In this document: positions 19,470 through 61,519 of the stretch, piece after piece | Layout of the letters: the number at the start of each line of letters is the position of its first letter | Numbering within the stretch: the first letter of the stretch is position 1 | Assembly: GCA_029262675.1 (NCBI GenBank) | Contig: JAJCYW010000005.1 | Coordinates: 17,402 to 81,401 of the forward strand | DNA: 64,000 nt | Direction: 5' to 3' | Source: Chloroflexota bacterium | GTDB lineage: Bacteria; Chloroflexota; Dehalococcoidia; DSTF01; RBG-16-68-14 | Position numbers and translations under genes: made by a program | The notes under the pieces: generated by a model | What the model saw: the letters and a program-made list of their open reading frames with translations, nothing else | Told to the model about the DNA's origin: nothing | Databases searched by the model: none

Positions 19470-21377
19470 ATGGCTCACTTCGGCGGCGGCGGCATGGGCG
19501 GCATCGGCGGCCTCGGAGGCCGCGGCGGCATCAGCGGCTTTCAGCGGCTCAAGGGAGGTTACGACGGCTGGGACGACGAGGAGTTTGGCTCCGTCTACAG
19601 TCACGATGTCGTCATGCGGCTGCTGGGCTACCTGCGGCCGTTCAAGGGCCGCGCTGCCACGGCGGTACTGGCGACTGTTATCTTCATCGTTGCTGGGCGC
19701 TACCAGCCGGTCCTCGTCCGCGACCTGATCGACTCAGCCGCTACCGGTGACATCGGCGATGTGAACCGAACTGGCGTCTTCTTCATCGTGCTGGCGTTAG
19801 CGGCCTGGGCGGCCAACTACGTGCAGTTGCTGAACACGGGCTGGATCGGCCACCGGGTGCTGTTCACGCTCCGCACGCAGATGTTCAACCACTACCAGAA
19901 GCTCTCGCTGCGCTTCTACGACAACAACGAGGTTGGCAAGGTGATGTCGCGCGTGACGAGCGACGTGACGACGCTCCAGGAGCTGCTCAGCAGCGGCCTG
20001 ATCACCATCCTCGCCGATTTCGGCGGCCTCTTCTTCGTGATCGCGCTGATGCTGATGCTGGATGTGCAGCTCACACTGGTCACGCTCGCCGTCGTGCCGT
20101 TCCTCGTCGGCGCCATGTTCGTCTGGCAGTTCTACGCGCGGCGCGCGTTTATACGCGTGCGCCAGGCGATCGCCGTCGTCAACTCCAGCCTGCAGGAGAA
20201 CGTCTCGGGCGTCCGCGTGATCCAGAGCCTCTCCCGCGAATCGGAGAGCAGCCGCCGCTTCGACGACGTCAACCGCAGCAACTTCACAGCCAACGTCGAT
20301 GCCGGCAAGGTCACGGCCGCGGTGCTGCCGATGGTCGAGGTCAGCGTCGCTGTGGCAACGGCAATGGTCGTCATATTCGGCGGCTTTAAGGCGATCAACG
20401 GCGACCTCTCGCCCGGCACGCTCGTCGCGTTCACGCTGTTGGTGCAGGGCTTCTTCGAGCCGGTGCGCACGCTGACGATGCAGTACACGCAGCTCCAGCG
20501 TGCGATGGCCGGCGGCGAGCGGATCTTCGAGGTGCTGGATACGGAGCCGGAGATCCAGGACGCGCCGGACGCGATCGAGCTCGATGACGTGCGTGGCGAG
20601 GTGACCTTCGAACACGTCAGTCACTCCTACGTGGACGACGTCGAGGTGCTGAAGGACTTCAATCTGCACGTCCAGCCGGGTGAGACGATCGCGATTGTCG
20701 GGCCGACGGGCGCGGGCAAAACAACCGTCACGGCTCTTGCCGCCCGTTTTTACGACGCTTCGGAGGGCCGCGTGCTGATCGACGGCCACGACATCCGCAA
20801 GGTGCAACGCCAGTCGCTGGCGCGTCGCATGGGTCTTGTGTTGCAGGAGCCGTTCCTCTTTTCAGGTACCGTGCTGAGCAACATCCGCTACAGCCGTCCC
20901 AACGCCTCGCGAGAGGATGTCGAACAGGCGGCCACGGCAGTTGGCGCGCACGATTTCATCATGCGGATGGAGCACGGCTACGACACTGAGCTGCAGGAAC
21001 GGGGCCAGAACCTTAGCGTCGGTCAGCGACAGCTACTGGCGTTCGCCCGCGCTGTGCTGGCGGACCCGCGCATCTTGATCTTGGACGAGGCGACGGCGAA
21101 CGTCGATACGCGGACCGAGGCCGTGATCCAGCGCGCGTTAGGCCAACTGTTGAAAGGCAGAACATCGTTCGTTATCGCGCACCGCCTATCGACGATCCGC
21201 AACGCGGACCGCGTGATCGTGCTGCAGGACGGCGCCATCGCCGAGCAGGGCACGCACGACGAGCTGTTGGCCTTGGGCGGACTCTACGCGAAGCTCTACC
21301 AGATGACGTACCAGGAGCGGAACGGTGACTCGGCCGCTGCCGCAGAGATTCCGCAGCCTGACGCGAGGGTCACTTGA
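19470..21377 (+). CDS. ABC exporter, fused TMD-NBD (heterodimer subunit 2)
   Basis: GPTGAGKTT, LSVGQRQ, ILILDEAT, IAHRLST; begins immediately after subunit 1. Confidence 0.93.
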   Translation: MAHFGGGGMGGIGGLGGRGGISGFQRLKGGYDGWDDEEFGSVYSHDVVMRLLGYLRPFKGRAATAVLATVIFIVAGRYQPVLVRDLIDSAATGDIGDVNRTGVFFIVLALAAWAANYVQLLNTGWIGHRVLFTLRTQMFNHYQKLSLRFYDNNEVGKVMSRVTSDVTTLQELLSSGLITILADFGGLFFVIALMLMLDVQLTLVTLAVVPFLVGAMFVWQFYARRAFIRVRQAIAVVNSSLQENVSGVRVIQSLSRESESSRRFDDVNRSNFTANVDAGKVTAAVLPMVEVSVAVATAMVVIFGGFKAINGDLSPGTLVAFTLLVQGFFEPVRTLTMQYTQLQRAMAGGERIFEVLDTEPEIQDAPDAIELDDVRGEVTFEHVSHSYVDDVEVLKDFNLHVQPGETIAIVGPTGAGKTTVTALAARFYDASEGRVLIDGHDIRKVQRQSLARRMGLVLQEPFLFSGTVLSNIRYSRPNASREDVEQAATAVGAHDFIMRMEHGYDTELQERGQNLSVGQRQLLAFARAVLADPRILILDEATANVDTRTEAVIQRALGQLLKGRTSFVIAHRLSTIRNADRVIVLQDGAIAEQGTHDELLALGGLYAKLYQMTYQERNGDSAAAAEIPQPDARVT

Positions 21378-21629: not shown

Positions 21630-22301
21630 ATGACATTACAGACGACTGAGGCGACGGTAGAGACGCCTCTCGTTGCACCACAGCAGGAGGACGAGGCACG
21701 TTGTCCCACGTGCGACGCCGCCGTTCCCGCGGGCTTCCGGTTCTGCGGGCAGTGCGGTCGCGCGCTGGCGGCTACGCTGGCGCCCTCTCCCGGCGACCTG
21801 CTGACGATCGCATTCATCGACCTCGAGGGCTTCACCACGTTCGCGAGCCGCGTCGACGACGAGGAGGTGCGCGAGCTGATCCGCTCGTTCCACGGCCTTG
21901 TCCGCGATGAGGTCGGCAGCCACGGTGGGTTTGAGGTGAAGCAGATGGGCGATGGCTTCATGCTGGCCTTCTCCAACCCGGCGAAGGCGCTCGATTGCGC
22001 CGTCGGGATCCAGCGGGCGGTGGCGAGCGCCGGCGGTGACGGACTCTCGCCCTCGACCCGCGTCAGCGCCGGACTGAACAGCGGCGGCGCGATTCGGGAC
22101 GGCGACGACTTCTTCGGCCACACCGTCAACGTTGCTTCGCGGATCGCCGGACGCGCGGACGGCGGCCAAGTTCTGATCTCGGAGGCGACGCGGGTGCTCG
22201 TCGGTCAGCCTGAGGGCGTCCGCATCATCGATAGGGGACGGCGCACGCTGCGCGGCATTGCGCCGCGCCACCGCCTCTTCGAGGTGGTCTGGTGGGAGTA
22301 A
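21630..22301 (+). CDS. Zinc-ribbon plus class III adenylate/guanylate cyclase domain protein
   Basis: CPTC...FCGQC, TIAFIDLEGFT, VKQMGDGFM, FFGHTVNVASR. Confidence 0.87.
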   Translation: MTLQTTEATVETPLVAPQQEDEARCPTCDAAVPAGFRFCGQCGRALAATLAPSPGDLLTIAFIDLEGFTTFASRVDDEEVRELIRSFHGLVRDEVGSHGGFEVKQMGDGFMLAFSNPAKALDCAVGIQRAVASAGGDGLSPSTRVSAGLNSGGAIRDGDDFFGHTVNVASRIAGRADGGQVLISEATRVLVGQPEGVRIIDRGRRTLRGIAPRHRLFEVVWWE

Positions 22302-22388: not shown

Positions 22389-24791
22389 TCACCGGCAGTC
22401 GTGGTTGTATTGCTGAATCACCCCCAAGATGTCGTTTAGCAGGTCTATCACCCCATCTGGCGGAGTCATGTTCCAGGCGTTGGGGCCTTCGGATGCTCCG
22501 CGGTCGTAGTGCGCGTCGTACGGTGGGTCACCCGTGGGCGAGTAGTGCTGGATGACACTGAGGATGTCGAACAGCAGGTCGACAGTGCCGTCCTGGCCCG
22601 GCCCTGAGATCGTCTCCACATCATAGAAGTCGTACGGGTTGAGGTAGTCACGATGCCCGCCGAACTTCTCGTCCAGACCGTTCTCCTGTTGGTCGGAGCA
22701 GCCATCACCGTCTTTGTCACCATTCGGAAGCTTGGGTGGCGGTCCCAGCTCGACGGCCCGCGTGCAGAACAAGGGTGGGCCAGCGACGAACGCGCCCAGC
22801 TCAAGGCTGAACTGCGTCTGGATGTCAATGGGCGCATTGACGGCGGTGCCGCCAGCAACGAGGTAGCAGGTCAGCACCGGCACTTCCTGCAGCCCCTCTC
22901 CCGCCTTTAGAGATGGCACGCACAGCAAACCCCTGATGTTGGTGAGGTCCAATATCTCAGTGACGAACTGGTTGCTGATGAACGGATCCGGGTCGGTAAT
23001 CACGCCGCCGGTGCTTTCGTAGCAGGCATAGTAGGGCAACGGATCTGGTGTGCCCCCGCCCTTTATCGCCGGCACGCACAGGTTGACGAGCGGCCCGATG
23101 GTGTGTTCAAGCACACCGTACTGGTCCGCTACCTCAACGGTCTGGCCGCCGGCGAACGCGCTGGTGGCGGTGAAGCAGCGTAGCGTGGGCAGGAACGGGT
23201 TTCCGCTCTTGTTCTTCTCGGAAGACGGACACAAGAAGGCTCCTTCTCCGACAGTAACGACCTCGTCCATGTACTGGTTCTGGAGCACTACGCCCACGTC
23301 GACGTCAGCGCCAAGGGCCGAGTAGCACGTGTAGTACGGCCCGTTCGGCGACCCCATGCTGAATACCAGGCTACCGCCACCGGGCGCGGTGCTGAAATCA
23401 GCCACCATGATGTGGTACTGCGTACCGCCCGCGAGCGGTATGTTCTTGGACGACTGGCTATTCGACAGGGTGTCGTCGTCGCAGAAGACCGGCGTGAGCG
23501 CCCCCTTAGAGCCGACGTACACCGTGACCACGGTGTCGTAGTCGGAGCCCTCCGTGGTGATGTTCACCAGCTCGTCACCTACCGGCGTGTACGTGTACCA
23601 GACGGTATTCGAGTCTCCGCCTACCGAGCCGCAGCTTGGTCCCGGGTCGTTCCCCGCGACGGTCGCAACACTCGTGTCCGTGATGTCGCTGAACGGCAGG
23701 CGGCTGACGACGGTGCTGTCCGTGAAGTCGTCGTTCTTGGCGGCCCCAGGGCCGCCGAGCGAGTGCGTCTGGAAGAACGCCCACATCAGGTCGTTGGCGC
23801 TGATTTCATGGGTCGTCTCACCAAAAGTCGGGACATACTGGCCCAAGTCCAATGATAGGCCAGGCCATGTGTGTCCACCTCCTTCAGTTCCGGGGCCTGC
23901 GCCGTCGACGTCCTCAACGACGTACAACTCCACCGTGGCGCCTTCGACGCAGTTTTGATATCGCACCAATCGGACGCCTGCGGTCGCAGGCGCCGGCCCG
24001 TCCTGGGGCACAACACCGCAGCCGTTGTTCGCCGCCAACAGGGCGATGGCATCTTCGATGCTGTTCTTGTAAGTAAAACCCGAGACATCTGACAACCCGC
24101 CTGCGAAAGGAACGTGCAGATCAGCGGTGCCGTGGAATGCGATGATGGGAACCGGGCGAGTTGAAGGGCATCCTGGTGGCTCAGGAAACCCAACCAAATT
24201 CGGCGGGAAGTAGGTTCCCCCCACGGGAGCGACGGCAGCAATGCGATTGGCGAGGCTGCAGGCGAGTCGAACCGACATGAACGCGCCGTTGGATTTGCCG
24301 GTGGCGTAGACTCGGGTAACGTCGATGCAGAGCTGTGACGCGACGGCATCGATCAGGTCGCTGATGAACGCGACGTCGTCGGGCCCACCCGGCTCTACTG
24401 TAGATGCGTTCCAGTGCGGGAGGGCCCAGAATGTCCCTGCAGTCGGCCACCCATCAGGCGACACCAAGACGAATCCAGCCTCCTCGGCCTTGGCGGGCAG
24501 TTCGCTGAAGAAGCGCTGGAACGCTCCGCTGCCGCCGAACCCGTGGAGATTGAAGACCAATGGCACGGCGTCGGCCCCCGTATATGAAGACGGAACGTCG
24601 AGAATGTAGGTTCTCGTAAAACCGCCGGAAACGATGGTTTCATTGAAGGTGCCGTCGGCGTGCGGGCGCGCCGGGTCGCACGTGCTTACAGCTGCAGCGC
24701 GCTCTGGGCTCGCCCCCAACAAGCCGAAAGTAACGACGACCGCAACAGCGAGCAGTCCGATGGTGACGTGCATGATGTCTTGCGTTCGCAT
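22389..24791 (-). CDS. Secreted PHB-depolymerase/LpqC-type esterase + PPC-like domain + Cys-rich repeats + flexitail
   Basis: Signal peptide; LHGFGG, GKSNG nucleophile, FHGTAD, GGGHTWPG; NDDF...VWYTYTP domain; four Cys repeats; C-terminal GDKDGDGCSD...DGVIDLLNDILGVIQQY. Confidence 0.8.
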   Translation of the reverse strand: MRTQDIMHVTIGLLAVAVVVTFGLLGASPERAAAVSTCDPARPHADGTFNETIVSGGFTRTYILDVPSSYTGADAVPLVFNLHGFGGSGAFQRFFSELPAKAEEAGFVLVSPDGWPTAGTFWALPHWNASTVEPGGPDDVAFISDLIDAVASQLCIDVTRVYATGKSNGAFMSVRLACSLANRIAAVAPVGGTYFPPNLVGFPEPPGCPSTRPVPIIAFHGTADLHVPFAGGLSDVSGFTYKNSIEDAIALLAANNGCGVVPQDGPAPATAGVRLVRYQNCVEGATVELYVVEDVDGAGPGTEGGGHTWPGLSLDLGQYVPTFGETTHEISANDLMWAFFQTHSLGGPGAAKNDDFTDSTVVSRLPFSDITDTSVATVAGNDPGPSCGSVGGDSNTVWYTYTPVGDELVNITTEGSDYDTVVTVYVGSKGALTPVFCDDDTLSNSQSSKNIPLAGGTQYHIMVADFSTAPGGGSLVFSMGSPNGPYYTCYSALGADVDVGVVLQNQYMDEVVTVGEGAFLCPSSEKNKSGNPFLPTLRCFTATSAFAGGQTVEVADQYGVLEHTIGPLVNLCVPAIKGGGTPDPLPYYACYESTGGVITDPDPFISNQFVTEILDLTNIRGLLCVPSLKAGEGLQEVPVLTCYLVAGGTAVNAPIDIQTQFSLELGAFVAGPPLFCTRAVELGPPPKLPNGDKDGDGCSDQQENGLDEKFGGHRDYLNPYDFYDVETISGPGQDGTVDLLFDILSVIQHYSPTGDPPYDAHYDRGASEGPNAWNMTPPDGVIDLLNDILGVIQQYNHDCR

Positions 24792-24828
24792 GCCCTACCT
24801 CCTCCTGTGCTGGCGTCTACGCCCGAGT

Positions 24829-24858
24829 CAAGGAGCGCCCCAATTGGGGCGCTCCTTG
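24829..24858. terminator. Perfect 30-bp palindrome downstream of flexitail gene 2
   Basis: CAAGGAGCGCCCCAATTGGGGCGCTCCTTG. Confidence 0.75.
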
Positions 24859-24876
24859 GTCGCGCCCCTCCATTCA

Positions 24877-26232
24877 CTACGCTGGAAGTGTGCAGCCAGT
24901 AGGCTGGTATTGCAGTATCACTCCCAGAATATCGTTCAGCAGGTCGATGACGCCGTCTGGCGCCGTCATGTTCCAGGCGTTGGGCCCTGTTGTCGGCCCG
25001 CGGTCATATGCAACGGCGTACGGCGGGGCGCCACCAGGAGTCGGCTGGTAATGCTGGATCACGCCGAGAATGTCATACAGCAGGTCGATGACACCGTCGC
25101 CGTTGACGTCGTAGTAGTCGTACGGGTCCTCCCAGTCACGGCCCCCGCCGTTGTTGTGCTGGGCCTTCGGCAGGTTCTCGTTCACGTCGGCGCAGCCGTC
25201 GCCGTCGGTGTCGCCCTTGAACGGGAGCTTGAGGGGCGCACAGTTGATCGACAGCGTGGCGGCAACGTCCACGAGCTCCGGTGTGGTGTCGCCATCCACA
25301 TCGACTAACTCCTGGCCGACCGTCCGTGGCAAGGCGTTGAACATGCCTGACTTCACGAAGTGCGTACCCGAAGGATTGGCCACAGAGAGCACTGGCAGCG
25401 CAACCTCAAAGGAACCGCTGGGCGGGCAATTCAAGGCGATTTCCACGATGCTGTCTTCATAGTTGCTCACGGGATACGGAGGCAATGCCAGCGCGTTGGT
25501 CGCTAGATGGTGAACGACCCGTTCCTGGCCCGTAACGGGTCCGATTCGCACCTCGAAGCCCCCAAACGGGGCAACGCCGTCCGGCCAGACCACCTCAGCA
25601 GCCCCGTTATCGCCGGTCGGCTTGTATTTCAGGGAGCCGTAGACGACCTGGGTTTGGAAGCCGATATAGCCCTTCACCGGCGCGTGGTTCACGTCCGCGA
25701 CCAGCGTGAATTGGCTGTCTGGCGGGACGGTGCACTTGGTCGGCTTCTGGGGATGATCGCAGACAGCGCCCGCACTCGTCACGTTGAGCGACATCTCGGG
25801 CTCGGGCGCTGGCGTGGCCGCCGGCGTGGGAGTCGCTTTGGGTGTTCCACCGGGGCCGATAGGGTTGCTCTGGCAAGCCGTTGCCGTGTTGTAGTGCTTT
25901 ATGAGAATGATTATGTCAGAAATGAGAACAGTGCCGTTCCCGTCGAGGTCCGCCTGCAGAGGCGCGGGGGGGACCGTCTGCAAGTAGTATGTGAGCTGAA
26001 TCAGCAGGTCGACGAGCGTCACCATGCCGTCGCCGTTGAGGTCCGCGCAGGCTGCTATCGAATGAAGGGGCGAAAGGGCGTTGGCGTCGACTTCGATTGC
26101 CGCTTCGGCGCTCTGCGGCTCGCCTGAGCCGAAACCGTCCGGGCTGGAAAGGAACACGCCTGCCGCGATCAGCGCGGGCAATACGAGCAGGCCGAATGCC
26201 TTGGCCGTTGACGAGAACACTCGGTAGAACAT
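24877..26232 (-). CDS. Secreted protein: dockerin-like + PT linker + cohesin-like beta-sandwich + flexitail
   Basis: ADLNGDGMVTLVDLL...ADLDGNGTVLISDII; MSLNV..VC..KCTVPPDSQFTL..GYIGFQ; C-terminal GDTDGDGCAD...flexitail. Confidence 0.75.
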   Translation of the reverse strand: MFYRVFSSTAKAFGLLVLPALIAAGVFLSSPDGFGSGEPQSAEAAIEVDANALSPLHSIAACADLNGDGMVTLVDLLIQLTYYLQTVPPAPLQADLDGNGTVLISDIIILIKHYNTATACQSNPIGPGGTPKATPTPAATPAPEPEMSLNVTSAGAVCDHPQKPTKCTVPPDSQFTLVADVNHAPVKGYIGFQTQVVYGSLKYKPTGDNGAAEVVWPDGVAPFGGFEVRIGPVTGQERVVHHLATNALALPPYPVSNYEDSIVEIALNCPPSGSFEVALPVLSVANPSGTHFVKSGMFNALPRTVGQELVDVDGDTTPELVDVAATLSINCAPLKLPFKGDTDGDGCADVNENLPKAQHNNGGGRDWEDPYDYYDVNGDGVIDLLYDILGVIQHYQPTPGGAPPYAVAYDRGPTTGPNAWNMTAPDGVIDLLNDILGVILQYQPTGCTLPA

Positions 26233-26249
26233 CTTGAGCTTCCCCACAG

Positions 26250-26280
26250 AGGAGCGCCCGGCATCTCACCGGGCGCTCCT
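26250..26280. terminator. 12-bp-stem hairpin downstream of flexitail gene 3
   Basis: AGGAGCGCCCGG-catctca-CCGGGCGCTCCT. Confidence 0.75.
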
Positions 26281-26311
26281 TCGTTACCCCATCTCCATCC
26301 ACAGTGCGTGG

Positions 26312-28108
26312 CTATACGCAGCCCAGTGGCTGGTATTGCTGTATCACGCCAAGAATGTCGTTCAGCAGATCGATGACGCCGTCCGGCGCCGTCATGTTCC
26401 ACGAGTTAGGCCCGGTTGTCGGCCCGCGGTCGAAGGCAATTGCGTACGGCGGAGCTCCTCCTGGTGCTGGCTGATAGTGGTTGATGACGCCGAGGATGTC
26501 GTTCAGCAGGTCGATGAAGCCGTCGCCGTTGACGTCGTAGTAGTCCCACGGGTCCATGTAGTCACGACCCCCGCCGTTGTTGGACTGGGCCTTCGGCAGG
26601 TTCTCGTTCACGTCCGCGCAGCCGTCGCCGTCGGTGTCGCCCTTGAAGGGCTGCTTGGTCGGCGTCGGTGTGGGCGTAGCTGTCGGCGTGGCCGTTGGCG
26701 TCGGCGTCGGCGCCAGCTTGACAGCCTCCGTGCAGAAGATATCGAGCGGGCCGACGTCCAGCGGGGTGGCTGGTTCGAACTGCGTAGTCACGGGAACGCC
26801 GATGACGCCTGCGAAGGGGCTAGCGGCGAGGTAGCACGCCAGTGGTGGGAGCCCCAGGTCTCCGGCTCCAAACTTCAGTGAAGGAACGCACACGAAGACC
26901 CGGTCGTCGATGACGGCGATAGGGCCAGTTTCGAACTGGTTGAGGATAATCGGACCCGGGCCAACGGCTACGGCGGCGAAACTATCGTAGCAGGACATGT
27001 AGGGTCCGGGTGGGGGCGGAGAGAAGTCCTTCGTCGCCGGAGCACAGAAGAATAGCAGCGGACCGATAATGTGTGGGGCCACACCGTACTGGTCTGCGAT
27101 GTCAACGCCTACTCCGCCCGGGAACGGGCCAGTGGCGGTATAACAGCGCAGCGTAGGCAGGGGCGCTAGCCCGCCGCCGTCCTTATCGGTGGGTGGACAT
27201 AGGTACGTGGGATCCAAGACGGTGATCGTGCTACTTTCGTATTGATTTTCGATTGCCACGGGCACACCGAGAGTCGGCCCAGGGGCGACGTAGCAGGCGT
27301 AGTTAACTGACGCTGGCGCGGCCGTTGGCGTCGGCGTGACCGTTGCCGTAGCTGTCGGCGTGGCCGTTGGCGTCGGCGGCACCAGCTTGACCGCCTCCGT
27401 GCAGAAGATGTCGAGCGGGCCGACGTCAAGCGGGAAGGCTGGTTCGAACTGCGTAGTCACGGGAACTCCGGGGACGCCTGCGAAGGAGCTGGTGGCGAAG
27501 TAGCAGGTCAGCGGTGGGACCCCTGGGTCTCCGGCTCCAAACTTCAGTGAAGGAACGCACACGAAGGCCCGGTCGTCAATGAGACTGATAGGTCCAGTCT
27601 CGAATTGGTTCGAGATTATCGGACCCGGGCCAACGGCTACAGCGGCGGGACTATCGTAGCAAGCATAGTAGGGAGCGGGTGGGGGCACCGAGAAATCCTT
27701 CGTCGCTGGAACGCAGAAGAATACCAACGGACCGATAATGTGCGGGGCTATCCCGTACTGGTCTACTATGTCAACGCCGATATCTCCGCCCAAAACCGGG
27801 CTAGAGGCGGCGTGGCATCGCAGCGTAGGCAGGGGCGGTGGCCCGCCGCCGTCCTTGCCCGTGGGTGGACATAGGTGCGTGCCATCCAAGACAGTGATAG
27901 TGCTGCTTTCGTATTGGTTGGCGATTATCACTGGCGCGCCGATAGGCGGCGCAGGAGCCAAGTAGCAGGCGTAGTTAATCGATGCCGGCGGGCCTCCAGA
28001 AGGTTCTCCTCCGGGCGCGGCCTCACCCTGGTCTTGCTGAACCAGGGTGAACGCGAAGATAGCGGCTAATGCTATCGCCAATGGCAGAAGCAGAATAGTC
28101 TTCCTCAT
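26312..28108 (-). CDS. Secreted protein with eight Cys-bracketed repeats + flexitail
   Basis: Signal peptide; two 223-aa units (669-bp DNA period), each of four C-Y..Q(Y/F)..CxPxxK repeats; PTPTATPTAT linkers; flexitail. Confidence 0.8.
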   Translation of the reverse strand: MRKTILLLPLAIALAAIFAFTLVQQDQGEAAPGGEPSGGPPASINYACYLAPAPPIGAPVIIANQYESSTITVLDGTHLCPPTGKDGGGPPPLPTLRCHAASSPVLGGDIGVDIVDQYGIAPHIIGPLVFFCVPATKDFSVPPPAPYYACYDSPAAVAVGPGPIISNQFETGPISLIDDRAFVCVPSLKFGAGDPGVPPLTCYFATSSFAGVPGVPVTTQFEPAFPLDVGPLDIFCTEAVKLVPPTPTATPTATATVTPTPTAAPASVNYACYVAPGPTLGVPVAIENQYESSTITVLDPTYLCPPTDKDGGGLAPLPTLRCYTATGPFPGGVGVDIADQYGVAPHIIGPLLFFCAPATKDFSPPPPGPYMSCYDSFAAVAVGPGPIILNQFETGPIAVIDDRVFVCVPSLKFGAGDLGLPPLACYLAASPFAGVIGVPVTTQFEPATPLDVGPLDIFCTEAVKLAPTPTPTATPTATPTPTPTKQPFKGDTDGDGCADVNENLPKAQSNNGGGRDYMDPWDYYDVNGDGFIDLLNDILGVINHYQPAPGGAPPYAIAFDRGPTTGPNSWNMTAPDGVIDLLNDILGVIQQYQPLGCV

Positions 28109-28294
28109 CAGGTTCCTCCTCTCTGTGTCTTGCCGGGTATCGTGCCGAGAGACGGCAGCCGAGTGCTATGTGGGTTGCGCGACGTAGGCGTAGCTCATTC
28201 GCACCTCCTCATGCAGGTGCGACCGGTAGCGAACCTCCGCCTTCTCCTGCCTTACCACCTGGCTCGCCACTGGCCATGGACTCGTGAGGCCCCA

Positions 28295-28322
28295 ATTCTA
28301 GCACCACGGCAGGAATTGTCAA
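28295..28322 (-). promoter_or_regulatory. Sigma70-like promoter for 26312-28108 and downstream genes
   Basis: Minus strand TTGACA-16-TAGAAT with extended -10 TG. Confidence 0.6.
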
Positions 28323-28421
28323 GGCTGAAGGCCTGGCGCGCATGCCTCTCCGCCACCGTCTGCCCTGGCTGGTTTGGCGGAAGCCTCAGCCGGTTCCTGT
28401 GCATGCAGAGGTGCGGCGAAG

Positions 28422-36830: not shown

Positions 36831-36896
36831 GTCGCGCTGGCGATTGACATCGCTACGGCGATCAAATCGCGCTGGCGACTGAATCGCTAGGGTGAA
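36814..36896. repeat. Tandem 17-18-bp mini-palindrome array
   Basis: Units (A/G)TCGC-N4-GCGA(T/C) at 36831, 36849 and 36866, with degenerate units at 36814 and 36883. Confidence 0.65.
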
Positions 36897-36998
36897 TGAC
36901 GCCGGGTTCGCGCGACAGCGCTGCGCGGCGGTGGTATAATCCGCGCAGACAGGCGTCCACACGACACGGGATCCCCGGGGCGGAAGCGAGGGCCAATC

Positions 36999-39029
36999 AT
37001 GCGTTACCACGAAGATACTTCGATACGGAAACCTGCGACCGTCGTCGCGCTGGCCGGCCTCGCGGTTGCGGTCGTCGTCGTCGCGCTGCTGCTGCGCGGC
37101 GGCACCGCCAGCGCCAACCCCCGCACAGACTTCGTCGAGGTGTCGGTCGGTAGCCGCGCGACGTGCGGTCTCACCAGCGCCGGCGCCGTTGAGTGCTGGG
37201 GAGGGTTGCGCGGAACGGACCCACAGAGCCCGCTCGGCGTACGCGAGGCAATGCCAGTGCCGATTGCGGGTCTTGAGTCGAACATCGCGACCATTTCTTT
37301 CGGTGCGCAGGACAGCGCATGCGCAATGACCACTTCTGGTGATGTCGTCTGTTGGGGCCCAGCGTACCTTGACTGGCGGAATCCTGAAGCCGGGCAGGTA
37401 CCCATCAGGGGCATTGAAGCTCCGGCAGTTGCTCTATCAACCGGTGGTGATCGTGCCTGTGCGCTGACGACGAACGGCGATGTCTACTGTTGGAGCCATA
37501 TTGGTTTTACGTCCGCAAGCGCTCGTGTCGCAGCGGCTGTCCCGGCATTAGGCGGAGGAGTCACCGCTATTGCCAGCGGCGGACTGCACGCGTGCGCGCT
37601 CACATCCGGCGGCGCCGTGATGTGTTGGGGCGAAAACGAATATGGCCAGCTCGGCAACGGAACGACCTCAAGCAGCAGCGCCGCGGCACCCGTGGCGGGA
37701 CTGCAATCCGGCGTCGTCGCGGTCACGGCCGGGGCGCTGCATAGCTGCGCGCTTACGCAGGCCGGCGCTGTCTTCTGCTGGGGACATAACCGAGGCGCAG
37801 AACTTGGCAGTGGCGGCGGCGGGTTTTCGGATACACCTGTGTCAGTCGAAGGTTTCTCCTCCAGCGTGACTGAGATACGAGCGGGCTTCGGGCGGACGTG
37901 CGTGCGGCTGGACACCGGTGGATACGAGTGCTGGGGCGGGCAGTTCGGGTCGACGCCCGCGCCGCTGCCCGGCGCGGAGAGCGCCGTTGCCGACGTAACG
38001 CTAGGGTTCGATCACGCCTGTCTCCTCATGGAGGACGGCAGAATCCGTTGTTGGGGGAGTAACGGCATGGGCCAGCTTGGCGACGGCACGACGGACTTCC
38101 GTGTTAGCCCCGTCGACGTCGTCGCTACCGAAGCCAAAGCTGCGCCGACGCCGACGCCATGTCCGGCTGCAGGCTGCCCCGTTCCGACGCCAGCGCCGCC
38201 GTGCGCAGCGGAGACGTGCATGGGGCTGGCCGTGCTGGACGGCGAACGAAACATTGTCTGCCACAGCGCTCGTAGCGCGGACTGCGACTTACCCGTGGGC
38301 AGCGACTTCACGCTCGCCGTTGATGCGTTTGCCGTTCCGGAGGCCGGCTATTTCTTGGTGCAATCGTTCATCCAGTATGGCAGGTACGATCCCGGCGCGA
38401 GCGAGGACGGCGCTGGACCGGGAACGTGTCGCGACTTCCGTGACAACGGCCGCCCCACCATCTTTCCCGCACCTCCCGGGTCCTCAGATGGCTACGATTG
38501 GCTGGATGACGAATGTATGTCTGCCGACCTCGTCTATGAAGCTGCGGTGTCGCCTTACGATGAAGTTGTTTGGCCCGATGTCGCACTGGCCCTGAACTAT
38601 GCACCCTTTGGCTTCATCAGCAACGGGGGGTTCTCCGGCCTGCTCCCACCGCTGACGGTGAGCACGCACACCGGCTTTGTCGTGAAACTGGCCATGAGTT
38701 GCTCGCCGCATGAAAGCGTGTCAAGTGTGGACCTGCTTCCCAAAGACCATTTCATCGCCGGTACGTCCGGCGCGGCATTCGCCGGGCCAGAAGAGGGAGA
38801 TCATTACCGACCGGACGTGAGCGGCCTGCGGGTCGGCTGCTGCGACGAGACCGTGACGAGCGTCGACGCGCTGTTTATCCTCCAGTTCGAGGCGGATCTG
38901 ACGGATAGTGTGTCCTGCGGATTCGATGGCGACGTGGACGCTGACGGTGACGTCGATTCTATCGACGCGGCGCTGACGCTGCAGTTCGTGGCGGGGCTGT
39001 TAGACCAGTTGCCGAGGGATATCAGCTAG
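36999..39029 (+). CDS. Secreted RCC1/BLIP-II-repeat propeller + cohesin-like + dockerin protein
   Basis: HACALTSGGAVMCWGENEYGQLG-type repeats; VC..DCDLPVGSDFTL..GYF domain; GDVDADGDVDSIDAALTLQFVAGLL. Confidence 0.83.
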   Translation: MRYHEDTSIRKPATVVALAGLAVAVVVVALLLRGGTASANPRTDFVEVSVGSRATCGLTSAGAVECWGGLRGTDPQSPLGVREAMPVPIAGLESNIATISFGAQDSACAMTTSGDVVCWGPAYLDWRNPEAGQVPIRGIEAPAVALSTGGDRACALTTNGDVYCWSHIGFTSASARVAAAVPALGGGVTAIASGGLHACALTSGGAVMCWGENEYGQLGNGTTSSSSAAAPVAGLQSGVVAVTAGALHSCALTQAGAVFCWGHNRGAELGSGGGGFSDTPVSVEGFSSSVTEIRAGFGRTCVRLDTGGYECWGGQFGSTPAPLPGAESAVADVTLGFDHACLLMEDGRIRCWGSNGMGQLGDGTTDFRVSPVDVVATEAKAAPTPTPCPAAGCPVPTPAPPCAAETCMGLAVLDGERNIVCHSARSADCDLPVGSDFTLAVDAFAVPEAGYFLVQSFIQYGRYDPGASEDGAGPGTCRDFRDNGRPTIFPAPPGSSDGYDWLDDECMSADLVYEAAVSPYDEVVWPDVALALNYAPFGFISNGGFSGLLPPLTVSTHTGFVVKLAMSCSPHESVSSVDLLPKDHFIAGTSGAAFAGPEEGDHYRPDVSGLRVGCCDETVTSVDALFILQFEADLTDSVSCGFDGDVDADGDVDSIDAALTLQFVAGLLDQLPRDIS

Positions 39030-56431: not shown

Positions 56432-58006
56432 ATGAACCGTCATCTGTCTTCGAGTCCGGGAGCCGCAAACGGCTTCCCATCACGCGCGTCCGCGTCACGC
56501 GGCGGCGGTTCGCTGCTGCTCGTCACGGCGCTGGTGGCCGTCGTATTTGCCGTGCTGGGGGCCTTCTGGCACGGCAGTCCCACGTCGGCAGAAACCGAGG
56601 GCGCGCCCGACATGGCGCTGAAGATGTACGCCGATACCGCAAAGACTGACCTGGTTTGTGATGTCGGGGTGTTCGGCCGCAAATGCTTCGTGCCCACCGG
56701 CCGGGACTTCACTGTGGAGATCGTTACCAACCCGGCGCCCAGCATTGGCTTCACTGCCTACAAGATCGTCCTCAATTACACCGGCAATATCAACCTGATA
56801 AAGCAAGGAGCACTGGACGGGTTCGCAGAGAACAAGGCTCCGAAGTGCAACCTGGGCAGCGAAACGAACATTCCGGGCACGTACACTATCATCTGTAAGA
56901 TCACTGCCAGCATCGGGCAGCTCGTGAACTATCATGGTCCCCTGGCGAACATCCACTTCAGTTGCAAGGGCGCCGGCTCTGCCAAAATCGGCCTCGTCGC
57001 CGGACCCACTGGCAGTTCCTACACGCAGCCGGTTTCGGTCTCTCCGGTGGTGATCCGGATCAAGAGCACGGACTCGATGAACATTAACTGCGTGGAGCCG
57101 ACGCCGACGCCCACCAATACGCCGACGGCCACGCCAACGGACACGCCGACCAACACCCCGACGAACACGCCCACGAACACACCGACCAACACTCCCACCA
57201 ACACGCCGCGCGTGACGCCGACGCCGACCGACACGCCAACGAATACACCGACCGATACGCCGACCGGCACGCCGACGAATACGCCGACGCCGACCGACAC
57301 CCCGACGAATACACCGACCAATACGCCAACCAACACGCCGACGCACACGCCGACGCACACGCCGACCAACACGCCGACGAATACGGCGACGCCGACGCCG
57401 CGCGACACTTTCACGCCGACGCCCACCGACACGGCAACACCGACGCCGCCGTCCACGCCCACGCCTTCGCCCACGGCGACGCCGCGCGTCACCGACACGC
57501 CAACCTTCACGCCGCCGCCGACCTTCACACCGGAGCCGACGTGGACACCGGAGCCGACCTGGACGCCGCCGAGCTCGCCGACCTCCACGCCGACGAACGT
57601 GGTGCCGACGCCAACGATGACGCCGACGCCGCGGTCGAGCACCAGCACGCCTGTGCCCCCGACCGCGACGCCCACGAACACGCCGACGTTCCCACCGACG
57701 CTCACGCCCACAAGCACATCGACGCCGTTTTCGCAGGTCTCACCCACGCAGCAGCCGCCGGCTACGCCGACGCTGTTCTCGCAAGTGTTGAGCTTGCCGG
57801 ACAGCGGCACCGGCGACGGGCCTTCCAGCGGGTACTTGGTGCTGGTCTCGCTCCTCGGCCTCGGCGTGATGTTCGCCGGCGTGCTGGTCTGGCGCTCTCA
57901 CGGGTTCGAGCTGTTCGCCGTGACGCTCCGCAGCGGCAACCAGAATAACTTCGTCCCGGGCTGGAAGCGTGCGCCCTCGCCGCGCCGCCACCCGCGCCTA
58001 CATTAG
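56432..58006 (+). CDS. Cohesin-like domain + long Pro/Thr stalk + LPDSG + TM surface protein
   Basis: Signal peptide; [20 protein letters not shown] domain; ~225-aa PT-rich stalk; LPDSG-x9[20 protein letters not shown]. Confidence 0.8.
57098..57770 (+). repeat. Low-complexity (TPTN/TPTD) coding repeat
   Basis: Degenerate 12-bp ACGCCGACNAAC-type units inside the CDS. Confidence 0.85.
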
Positions 58007-60082: not shown

Positions 60083-61519
60083 ATGTTGGCAGAGAGGATC
60101 CCGGTCTTGCGATATGCGCTGACGCTCATCATTGTTGTGGCGGCTCTGGCTGTCGCCAACTCCGCGTCGGCCTTTCCGACGCAGCCGAGAACCGGCGTAA
60201 CGATCCTCGATCAGGACGCAGTGGAGCCGGGCTACGTGCTGTTCACCCCGCTGCTCGGCGACTCCAGCCAGGGTACGGGCGGCGTCGTCTACCTGCTCAA
60301 CATCTTCGGCCAGCCGGTACACACCTGGGCGATCGAGACTGGTCCCGGCCAGTACGCGCAGTTGCTGCCGGACGGCAGCCTGCTGCTGGGCAGCCAAGCC
60401 GAACGCGAGATCGAGATTCCGCCCGGCGGCGGCGGTAGGCTCTCGATTGTCGACTGGGACGGAGACGAGATCTGGAGCTATCGGAACGACCTCCTCCATC
60501 ATGACTTCGAGATGCTGCCGAACGGCAACATCGCCGCACTCCTCTACAACAAGATCCCGCAAGAGTTGAATGAGGAAGTGCAGGGCGGCATTCCAGAAAC
60601 AGAATTGGAGGACGGCTCGATCTGGTCCGACTCGATAATCGAGATCGACGCCAGCGGCGAGACCGTGTGGCAGTGGGACGCCTGGGAGCACATCGACCCG
60701 GCGAACCACGTGATCAACGCCGACCTCAATCGCAACGAATGGACGCATGCGAACTCGTTGCGCCACGTGGAGTCCAACCCGGTAACCGGCTCCGAGGCAT
60801 ATCTTGTGAGCTTCCGCCAGACCAGCAGCATGGTCCTCATCGACCGCGCAACAGGCGACGTGATCTGGCACGCCGGGCCGGAGCTCCTCTCTCAGCAGCA
60901 CGACGCGCGGATGCTGGAGAACGGCAACGTGCTAGTCTACAGCAACGGTGAGGACCCCGCCGATACGCCCACCGGCCATCGCGTTCCAAGCTCCACCGTG
61001 CTGGAGATCGACCCGCGGGCCGCGGACGACCCGGTCGTCTGGTCGTACCGCGACCAGTCGCTAACTGGCTGGCGCTTCTTCTCGCCGCTGATCAGCGGCG
61101 CACAGCGTTTGGCCAACGGCAATACGCTGATCACGGAGGGCATGGCCGGCCGCATCTTCGAGGTGACGTCGGCCGGTGAGATCGTCTGGGAGTACGTCAG
61201 CCCCTACGGCGATCCGGCAGAAGAGGGTCCGGCCATCGAGTCGTGGATCTTCAAGGCCCTCAAGTACACCCCCGATGACGTTGACTTCCCGGCCTCGCTG
61301 CCGAGCCCGATCATTGTGCTCACAGGCGATGAAGCGCCAGAGGGGCAGTCCATCGTCATCGGCAGCGACGATGGAGACGGCACTGCCGATGACATTGGCG
61401 GCGATGACGACGGCGTGGCCATCGAGTGGTGGCATGTGCTGCTGAGCGCGATAGGCGCTGGCATCGCCTTCTTCGCGGTAGGTTTCGGCGTCGCTCGGCG
61501 GACGGCCCGCGCGGCCTGA
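60083..61519 (+). CDS. Aryl-sulfate sulfotransferase (ASST)-like exported protein with C-terminal TM
   Basis: LHHDFEMLPNGN, WTHANSL, QQHDARML, SGAQRLANGNTLITEG, GEIVWEY. Confidence 0.82.
   Translation: MLAERIPVLRYALTLIIVVAALAVANSASAFPTQPRTGVTILDQDAVEPGYVLFTPLLGDSSQGTGGVVYLLNIFGQPVHTWAIETGPGQYAQLLPDGSLLLGSQAEREIEIPPGGGGRLSIVDWDGDEIWSYRNDLLHHDFEMLPNGNIAALLYNKIPQELNEEVQGGIPETELEDGSIWSDSIIEIDASGETVWQWDAWEHIDPANHVINADLNRNEWTHANSLRHVESNPVTGSEAYLVSFRQTSSMVLIDRATGDVIWHAGPELLSQQHDARMLENGNVLVYSNGEDPADTPTGHRVPSSTVLEIDPRAADDPVVWSYRDQSLTGWRFFSPLISGAQRLANGNTLITEGMAGRIFEVTSAGEIVWEYVSPYGDPAEEGPAIESWIFKALKYTPDDVDFPASLPSPIIVLTGDEAPEGQSIVIGSDDGDGTADDIGGDDDGVAIEWWHVLLSAIGAGIAFFAVGFGVARRTARAA

Follow-up and report, generated by a model that had tools for sequence, protein, structure and literature searches.

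We analyzed a group of genes for secreted and surface-anchored proteins at positions 22389-39029 of a 64,000-nucleotide stretch of DNA (hereafter the window; C5:17402-81401 of a 3.42-Mb assembly, 92% complete) from an uncultured Chloroflexota bacterium of the class Dehalococcoidia. The encoded proteins carry cohesin-fold domains, dockerins and a C-terminal tail domain named flexitail, and the analysis suggested that the window is probably one locus of a genome-wide docking network built on such modules. Dehalococcoidia are best known for small genomes and organohalide respiration, and cohesin-dockerin assembly has been understood almost only as a Firmicute device for the degradation of plant fibre, the modules found elsewhere being seen as scattered.

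Gene organization of the locus

Eight co-directional open reading frames (ORFs) were found on the minus strand at 22389-33335, in the transcription order H, G, F, E, D, C, B and A, and all eight begin with a hydrophobic N-terminal segment. The array is located downstream of thyX (33389-34210), which it adjoins. The first gene, H (32499-33335), encodes a putative wall or membrane anchor, in which the N-terminal hydrophobic segment is followed by a clade-I (D/H-type) cohesin at amino acids (aa) ~66-210 (nucleotides (nt) 32706-33140) and by a sorting signal composed of LPDSG, a transmembrane (TM) segment and the sequence RGRGRSP (nt 32502-32633); the true start of H is probably downstream of 33335. 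The next two genes, G (31957-32382) and F (31472-31885), encode small secreted proteins of 141 aa and 137 aa, respectively, each with two conserved Cys residues, the former with a Pro-rich C-terminus and the latter being its distant paralogue. No Pfam or NCBIfam match was obtained for either protein and no further paralogue was found elsewhere in the genome; they could be small subunits of the assembly. The E gene (29669-31315) encodes a candidate cargo protein with a signal segment, TSP3 Ca-binding repeats (Pfam TSP_3, 40.2 bits) and a flexitail (aa 441-544, nt 29684-29995), and its stop codon is 1 nt away from the start codon of D. D (28654-29667) encodes a putative adaptor, consisting of a signal segment, a clade-I cohesin (aa 45-190, nt 29098-29535), a proline- and threonine-rich (PT) linker and a canonical dockerin of the Dockerin_1 family (aa 260-323, nt 28699-28890). 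These five genes, H-G-F-E-D, make up an operon that is conserved on a metagenome contig.

The remaining three genes of the array encode two further candidate cargo proteins and a connector. C (26312-28108) has two Cys-containing DUF7450 repeat blocks, PT linkers and a flexitail (aa 491-594, nt 26327-26638). B (24877-26247) would be a bivalent connector, in which a signal segment is followed by a Cys-clasped dockerin with a PPAP linker (aa 65-123, nt 25879-26055), a middle domain with a cohesin fold of a second family (aa 150-336, nt 25240-25800) and a flexitail (aa 346-449, nt 24901-25212). A (22389-24791) is the putative cargo enzyme, with a signal segment, an alpha/beta-hydrolase domain, DUF7450-like Cys repeats (DUF7450 was reported by Pfam in both C and A) and a flexitail (aa 692-799, nt 22395-22718). 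The hydrolase domain of A matches Abhydrolase_2 and is nearest to extracellular polyhydroxyalkanoate/polyhydroxybutyrate-depolymerase esterases (NF050058, E-value 2e-34, below the curated cut-off).

Two more genes of the window, both on the plus strand and thus opposite to the array, carry related domains. In M (36999-39029), an RCC1 beta-propeller (aa 43-375, 152.8 bits) precedes a cohesin-fold domain of the second family (aa ~396-612, nt 38184-38834), and the protein ends in a dockerin (aa 615-671, nt 38841-39011). The second anchor (56432-58006) starts with a TM or signal segment, which is followed by a cohesin-like domain of clade IV (aa 59-189, nt 56606-56998) and by a PT-rich stalk of ~270 aa; its C-terminal part consists of LPDSG, a TM segment and a basic tail (nt 57794-58003).

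A preliminary description of the locus had listed five kinds of parts, and all five were found where it had placed them or within a few codons. The anchor was recovered in H with its cohesin, LPDSG, hydrophobic stretch and RGRGRSP tail, and the adaptor in D, for which both the cohesin fold (by structure prediction) and the dockerin (by Dockerin_1) were supported. The two branching modules correspond to B (dockerin, cohesin fold and flexitail) and M (RCC1, cohesin fold and dockerin), the cargo to A (esterase), C (Cys repeats) and E (TSP3), whose flexitails scored 128.8 to 145.5 bits against a cut-off of 40, and the second stalked anchor to 56432-58006, with its cohesin-like domain, PT stalk and LPDSG-TM end.

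Cohesins and cohesin-fold domains

A hidden Markov model (HMM) seeded with the D and H cohesins only, and iterated on six-frame ORFs, converged on the Pfam-positive cohesins of the genome, among them the eight modules of a 1888-aa protein on another contig. When the D/H profile was compared with the sequences of the Protein Data Bank (PDB), cohesins were matched with E-values of 1.2e-11 (A. cellulolyticus ScaB) and 3e-7 (C. thermocellum CipA), and dockerins were matched at 4e-8. The window cohesins are thus family members by homology despite being missed by the Pfam Cohesin model, for which D had the best score of the window (15.4 bits, E-value 0.02), the second anchor had an E-value of 0.0125, and H, B and M had no match. 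The AlphaFold2 (AF2) model of D showed a predicted local distance difference test score (pLDDT) greater than 90 over aa 45-190, and the top 50 Foldseek matches to the PDB were all cohesins, whose characteristic fold is a nine-stranded beta-sandwich (jelly-roll), with E-values of 3e-10 to 2e-7 and TMt up to 0.80, the non-cellulosomal A. fulgidus cohesin 2xdh being one of the top matches. The cohesin domains of D and H are 44% identical to each other, and judging from the profiles and the model, the cohesins of both proteins are genuine and classical and belong to a rare clade.

The middle domains of B and M form one paralogous family, distinct from the D/H-type cohesins. For the B middle domain, the AF2 model had pLDDT values of mostly 71 to 96, with ~55 over aa 231-240, and 49 of the top 50 PDB matches by Foldseek were cohesins of types I, II and III (E-value 1e-5, TMt 0.5 to 0.65), the only non-cohesin being an integrin at rank 44. 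A direct profile comparison by hhalign between this second family and the classical cohesins gave a probability of 95.5% (E-value 1.4e-8, 100 columns), and no Pfam or NCBIfam entry matched the family. The genome holds ~46 domains of this family, which are always joined to a dockerin, a flexitail or an LPDTG/TM anchor. In a scan of 1.84 billion representative sequences, only 822 clusters at 50% identity were retrieved (480 at E-values of 1e-10 or less), indicating that the family is small and lineage-restricted; among 61 relatives it was found in 16 of the 16 genomes of the window's own family, plus one match elsewhere. The cohesin-like domain of the second anchor was matched by both profiles, classical and second-family, and in the tree it formed a clade of its own together with three flexitail-bearing proteins. 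The folds of the H, M and second-anchor domains were assigned by homology to the modelled D and B domains, and on this basis B, M and the second anchor carry three divergent cohesin-fold domains that are missed by Pfam and NCBIfam.

In both H and the second anchor, LPDSG is followed by a hydrophobic segment of ~20 residues and then by R/K residues. A single sortase (C10:173203-173622, 85 bits) was found in the genome, which also encodes transpeptidase-type penicillin-binding proteins, whose presence makes the predicted wall anchoring plausible.

Dockerins and the flexitail

With Dockerin_1 (Pfam PF00404, gathering threshold 22.9 bits), the N-terminal dockerin of B scored 29.2 bits and the C-terminal dockerin of D 27.6 bits, both above the threshold, and the M dockerin scored 18.5 bits by itself and 24.2 bits once the neighbouring matches in the frame were added. 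The D dockerin comprises two tandem segments of ~22 residues, each with a Ca loop of the DxNxDGxxxxxD type and a helix (GDVNCDRTVNAVDATLILQ ... DTNADGIVNPLDAALILQ), and the B dockerin has the same organization. The corresponding helix pairs were present in the AF2 models (272-282/305-315 in D and 78-90/109-119 in B). The B dockerin represents a subtype (PPAP-type) in which both ends bear a Cys and the linker has the conserved sequence Q-T-V/I-P-P-A-P; this subtype is common in other families of the order and was found in 40 of the 61 relatives. At least four proteins of the genome combine a PPAP-type dockerin with a flexitail, an arrangement consistent with a connector whose two plugs differ in specificity.

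The flexitail corresponds to NCBIfam NF041520 (cut-off 40 bits), and full-length, C-terminal matches were obtained for A (145.5 bits), B (127.8 bits), C (128.8 bits) and E (129.6 bits). In the model of the B flexitail, helices were predicted at 389-398 and 436-446, each after a D-x-N/x-x-D-G-x-I-D loop, and in the family alignment Cys352 and Cys452 (B numbering) were nearly invariant; the internal repeat is recognisable as a duplication even in the DNA. A search of the PDB sequences with a profile of the B middle domain plus flexitail returned weak EF-hand matches only, with E-values of 0.1 to 1. The PPAP-type subtype provided a link to the dockerins: a profile of 23 PPAP-type sequences matched canonical dockerins with 97.5% probability (E-value 6e-12) and the flexitail with 96.0% (E-value 5e-9, 54 to 57 columns), the alignment running through the two loop-helix repeats and the linker with its PP to the terminal Cys. 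The flexitail match was 74% (E-value 3e-5) when the profile was built from the 16 copies of flexitail-free genomes only, and 88% when the two most flexitail-like copies were removed from it, compared with less than 5% for reversed-sequence decoys and 0.2% for cohesin. These comparisons are good but not conclusive indications that the flexitail is a derived dockerin, which would carry an insertion of ~20 residues between the repeats and an N-terminal TSP3-like Ca loop.

At the DNA level, the flexitails of B, C and E are ~87% identical over ~330 bp, the remainder of the proteins being unrelated, and that of A is ~72-75% identical over ~183 bp, which suggests recent duplication or gene conversion within the array.

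Genome-wide repertoire of docking modules

Curated models reported 62 Dockerin_1 matches, ~50 flexitail ORFs and 16 cohesin modules above cut-offs in the 3.4-Mb genome, and the census with our own HMMs gave 30 ORFs with 40 classical cohesins, 74 dockerin ORFs and 52 flexitail ORFs. A hydrophobic start was found in 127 of 133 complete ORFs with such modules, in comparison to 23% of other long ORFs. The largest scaffold protein, on contig C10, has 1888 aa with eight cohesins (Pfam Cohesin, 142.8 bits) and an LPDTG signal; it closes a cluster of ten module genes, and the sortase gene lies 17 kb from this cluster. Pfam reported Cohesin alone for this scaffoldin, with no carbohydrate-binding module (CBM). 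LPxTG-like tails, often LPD[ST]G, were found in ~17 ORFs, five of which are cohesin proteins. In addition, seven gene pairs were observed (on contigs C2, C7, C10 and C11) in which a large dockerin protein of ~800-1200 aa is followed after 100-450 bp by a small cohesin protein of 213-706 aa that has LPDSG or a TM anchor at its C-terminus, and several of these paired anchors share a P-x-V/T-G-T-G motif before the helix, in place of LPXTG. From their arrangement, the paired genes look like dedicated tethering pairs.

The cargo repertoire was surveyed by running Pfam on each of the 73 dockerin-only ORFs and 52 flexitail ORFs. The families found include RCC1, arylsulfotransferase, beta-helix, TSP3, FG-GAP, PD40/DPP-IV, subtilase, BsuPI, CARDB and GSDH, as well as CAP, penicillin amidase, M28, M23, NHL, RHS and VWA. 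No glycoside hydrolase (GH) family was present among the 25 most frequent of the 38 Pfam families on dockerin ORFs or the 31 on flexitail ORFs. The architecture is therefore cellulosome-like but lacks two defining cellulosome features, GHs as the main cargo and a scaffoldin CBM. The flexitail is C-terminal in 49 of 52 copies and the dockerin in 64 of 75. One of the three non-terminal flexitails lies at aa 1588-1704 of a 2109-aa RHS-repeat protein (C17:111455-117784).

Conservation and distribution among relatives

On a metagenome contig from ENA (L133), the H, G, F, E and D genes occur in the same order and orientation, with identities of 66%, 41%, 34%, 58% and 51%, respectively. The orthologs on this contig keep LPDSG on H', TSP3 and a flexitail on E', and a cohesin and a dockerin on D', and the ORF orthologous to F is also matched by G of the studied locus; the flexitail of the E ortholog is of another, more common subtype. 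A second contig, from JGI (L142), carries an H ortholog followed by a G ortholog (49% identical), and another D ortholog was found at 79% identity. Scanning of metagenomes added only two short contigs. In the tree, H and H' as well as D and D' formed orthologous pairs, from which it follows that the duplication that gave rise to H and D is older than the split of the lineages. The conserved H-G-F-E-D operon argues that the anchor, the adaptor and one flexitail-bearing cargo protein are functionally linked.

Synteny of the whole array beside thyX was considered and is not conserved in relatives. An ortholog of M stands beside thyX in the closest relative (L001), and in a relative whose ThyX is 84% identical (L002) the slot between thyX and the cyclase/ABC genes holds a single gene, for an SGNH-type hydrolase with a flexitail. 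In the window, the corresponding flank of the array consists of an ABC exporter (19470-21377, plus strand) and a zinc-ribbon adenylate/guanylate cyclase protein (21630-22301, plus strand), and since their orthologs lie directly beyond the single flexitail gene in L002, they mark the edges of a variable slot. On the other side, M comes after thyX and the genes for a prepilin peptidase and a UbiA prenyltransferase, and is itself followed by that for a signal peptidase I.

Cohesins reported by Pfam were found in 45 of the 61 relatives, covering every family of the order but one, in comparison to 14 of 200 other genomes of the phylum, and those of the relatives often reside in ORFs of 1000-1700 aa bearing several cohesins. 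The flexitail was present in 16 of the 16 genomes of the window's own family, with 14 to 53 copies each, and was patchy in three other families; no match was obtained in 14 control genomes or in a phylum-wide sample of 200 further genomes, and its absence from these samples puts the parts found in the window far beyond chance. All 21 flexitail-positive relatives have cohesins (Fisher p 5e-4, with phylogeny ignored). Anchors resembling D and H stand without G, F, E or D in the relatives G206 and G253. In G253, a flexitail-free genome of another family, one contig (L141; G253:C69:1-14000) encodes two tandem TM-anchored D/H-like cohesins flanked by two proteins that end in PPAP-linker Cys-clasped dockerins, a dockerin type present in 17 to 40 copies in some genomes of that family.

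Two candidate pairings of receptor and plug were considered and rejected. A pairing of PPAP-type dockerins with D/H-type cohesins, an idea drawn from the arrangement in G253, failed a phyletic test, the dockerin type occurring in 40 and the cohesin type in 4 of the 61 relatives; G206 has a D/H-type cohesin without a PPAP-type dockerin, and the dockerin match in G204 is marginal (E-value 1e-3). The second cohesin-fold family as a general receptor of the flexitail was also dropped, as among the 61 relatives the flexitail (3 to 51 copies) occurs in five genomes of other families too.

Proposed docking network and alternative explanations

Taken together, we consider with a probability of roughly 0.65 that the window is one locus of a genome-wide, non-cellulolytic cohesin-dockerin docking network, whose binding and assembly are predicted from sequences and structural models. 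Under this reading, the proteins would be exported by the Sec pathway, and the single sortase would then attach H and the stalked protein of 56432-58006 to the wall through LPDSG, or alternatively both anchors would stay tethered by the C-terminal helix. The anchor cohesins would capture plug-bearing proteins in a Ca-dependent manner, and D (cohesin and dockerin) and B (dockerin, cohesin-like domain and flexitail) would act as adaptors that add tiers or bridge cohesin classes, so that A (esterase), C (Cys repeats), E (TSP3 repeats) and M (RCC1 propeller) may be displayed as clients. H-G-F-E-D would be the conserved core, with an anchor, an adaptor, a single flexitail client and a pair of small secreted proteins, whereas A, B and C may be lineage-specific additions sharing near-identical flexitails. 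The preliminary description had proposed that the proteins of 22389-39029 form one assembly; the domain identities, the multi-tier architecture and the non-GH cargo held, but the span is not self-contained, being one of many loci, with the eight-cohesin scaffoldin and the sortase on another contig.

Several results weigh against the network reading. In the curated searches, Dockerin_1 (B and D) and the flexitail model (A, B, C and E) were above their cut-offs, but the window copies did not reach the gathering score of Pfam Cohesin (PF00963, 24.1 bits). The resemblance of the flexitail to a dockerin, which had been put forward earlier, gained profile support through the PPAP-type intermediate but was not significant in direct comparison with canonical dockerins (hhalign 2%), and Dockerin_1 matched the flexitail only over the first Ca loop with E-values of 0.02 to 0.1; the homology thus depends on one intermediate family and on alignments built by ourselves. 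The D/H-type cohesin was found in only 4 of the 61 relatives and is absent from a genome of the same genus. The second family is confined to the window's own family, and four other genera have the flexitail but lack the second family, which makes it not a universal receptor of the flexitail, although divergent versions may be missed. Further, the L002 slot holds a single gene where eight are found here, which makes the array as a whole a variable island, and none of A, B and C was seen to be kept alongside the H-G-F-E-D core in the loci of relatives that were compared.

A more far-reaching form of the network reading can be offered tentatively, at somewhat less than even odds. According to it, the flexitail would be a third, enlarged class of dockerin derived from the PPAP-linker Cys-clasped subtype, and, combined with the canonical dockerins and five or more cohesin clades, of which two escape domain databases, it would form several orthogonal docking channels. 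Through these, over 120 secreted proteins would be positioned on a scaffold anchored by sortase, H-G-F-E-D being a portable mini-scaffold cassette. These proteins would account for about 4-5% of the genes if the genome has ~3,000 genes, a number that was estimated and not counted. The putative clients in such a multi-channel system, put forward with the same reserve, would be proteases, esterases, sulfotransferases, propellers and RHS toxins.

Other explanations of the same modules have to be weighed. The proteins with a cohesin and a plug, such as D, B, M and the many second-family proteins of 320-430 aa with a dockerin or flexitail, might build a Ca-dependent sheath or lattice by head-to-tail polymerisation, with the cargo domains as the fabric of a structural coat or fibre. 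This would account for the large share of module proteins without a catalytic domain, for the many small proteins made of a cohesin-like domain and a tail, an architecture that is a widespread family, and for the composition of the C10 sortase cluster, which consists nearly entirely of such proteins; moreover, with the D and H cohesins as similar as they are (44%), D could in principle bind other copies of D. We regard a coat as unlikely, for clear enzymes also bear the tails (the esterase A, subtilases, penicillin amidases, M28 and M23 peptidases, and arylsulfotransferases) and the seven pairs of a dockerin protein and a membrane cohesin look like one-to-one tethering, but a coat and the display of clients are not mutually exclusive. 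It is similarly improbable that the flexitail is a C-terminal sorting or attachment domain for other machinery, either a secretion or processing signal or a direct binder of wall, lipid or Ca mineral, in which case the cohesins would be used by canonical dockerins only and A, C and E would stand outside the scaffold. Such a role would agree with the strictly C-terminal position in 49 of 52 copies, the conserved terminal Cys, the sub-threshold direct similarity to dockerins and the NCBIfam name, which says only that it is a tail of a 'putative surface protein', and also with the fact that no receptor can be assigned and that the flexitail occurs in genomes without the second cohesin family. However, dockerins are likewise mostly C-terminal (64 of 75), the PPAP-type subtype links the flexitail to dockerins over both repeats, cohesins are present in every flexitail-positive relative, a flexitail gene lies 1 nt upstream of a cohesin gene in the conserved operon, and the internal copy in the RHS-type protein would not be tolerated by a terminal sorting signal.

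It is also conceivable, but very improbable in our judgment, that there is no assembly at all and that the modules are independent stabilising, spacer or carbohydrate- or ligand-binding domains, spread by domain shuffling in a fast-evolving secretome. Non-cellulosomal modules are widespread and mostly without a demonstrated function (Peer et al. 2009, as cited in PMC9012536), and the array is a variable island that bears traces of recent duplication or gene conversion. On the other hand, binding was observed for those non-cellulosomal pairs of archaea that had been tested (as cited in PMC9012536), the genome holds a complete and stoichiometrically sensible set of parts (scaffoldin, anchors, adaptors and ~125 plug-bearing proteins), plug genes repeatedly adjoin genes of anchored cohesins, and the operon is conserved, all of which speaks against this view.

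Comparison with known systems

The cellulosome of Ruminococcus flavefaciens (PMC2930009, PMC3821032) is architecturally the nearest system, with a sortase-anchored single-cohesin protein, ScaE, and adaptor scaffoldins such as ScaC and ScaH. It shares with the present genome the LPXTG-type single-cohesin anchors (here H and the second anchor), adaptors made of a cohesin and a dockerin (here D), several specificity groups of cohesins and dockerins, and dockerins with an intramolecular clasp. Its repertoire of more than 200 dockerin proteins, non-glycosidase ones included, is large, as is the one described here, and its structures were among the best fold matches (5lxv, 2zf9). In contrast to R. 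flavefaciens, the leading cargo families here include no GH, the scaffoldin has no CBM and the host belongs to the Dehalococcoidia class of Chloroflexota rather than to the Firmicutes; the flexitail and a cohesin-fold family absent from Pfam come in addition, and docking here is a prediction. The amylosome of Ruminococcus bromii (PMC4611034) is a precedent for the organization of non-cellulase enzymes at the surface by cohesins and dockerins, but its cargo still consists of glycoside hydrolases (GH13), and it is small and belongs to the Firmicutes.

Cohesin and dockerin modules outside cellulosomes are known in all three domains of life (Peer et al. 2009, as cited in PMC9012536). As in the present genome, the modules of archaea (the Archaeoglobus fulgidus pair, and the anaerobic methanotrophic archaea (ANME) ANME-1 and ANME-2; PMC9012536) and of other bacteria occur in organisms not known to degrade cellulose, and the clients are likewise binding proteins, proteases and surface proteins, with a content that varies strongly among close relatives. 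For those organisms the literature emphasizes that scaffoldins are missing or small, with up to 5 cohesins per protein in the large repertoires reported for ANME (PMC9012536), compared with the eight-cohesin scaffoldin with a sortase signal found here; ~125 plug-bearing proteins in 3.4 Mb and a third type of plug also set this genome apart. The NF041520 entry names the tail but gives no function, whereas here the tail is linked by profiles to a dockerin subtype and occurs in a conserved operon with two cohesins. In the searchable literature, no description of such a system in Dehalococcoidia was found, the sole paper with both 'dockerin' and 'Dehalococcoidia' mentioning them in unrelated passages; nor was there a paper on a bacterial flexitail domain, the term 'flexitail' returning papers on antibody engineering only.

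The analysis thus points to a Dehalococcoidia lineage that devotes a few percent of its genes to a scaffold kit without detected polysaccharide-degrading cargo. If the network reading is true, it would be a general system for organizing proteases, esterases, sulfotransferases and adhesin-like domains at the surface, and it could be a source of new cohesin-plug pairs, possibly orthogonal ones, for use in protein engineering. It also gives a testable function to two unstudied families, the flexitail and the second cohesin-fold family (~800 clusters at 50% identity), for which the five-gene H-G-F-E-D cassette would be a small and tractable start for binding work.

One further gene of the window may be compared with the docked proteins. 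At 60083-61519 (plus strand), an arylsulfotransferase-type beta-propeller (Arylsulfotran_2, 92.9 bits) ends in a C-terminal TM helix and a basic tail, and the five other propellers of this type in the genome bear dockerins instead, so that, from the sequences, the same type of client seems to be tethered either directly or via docking.

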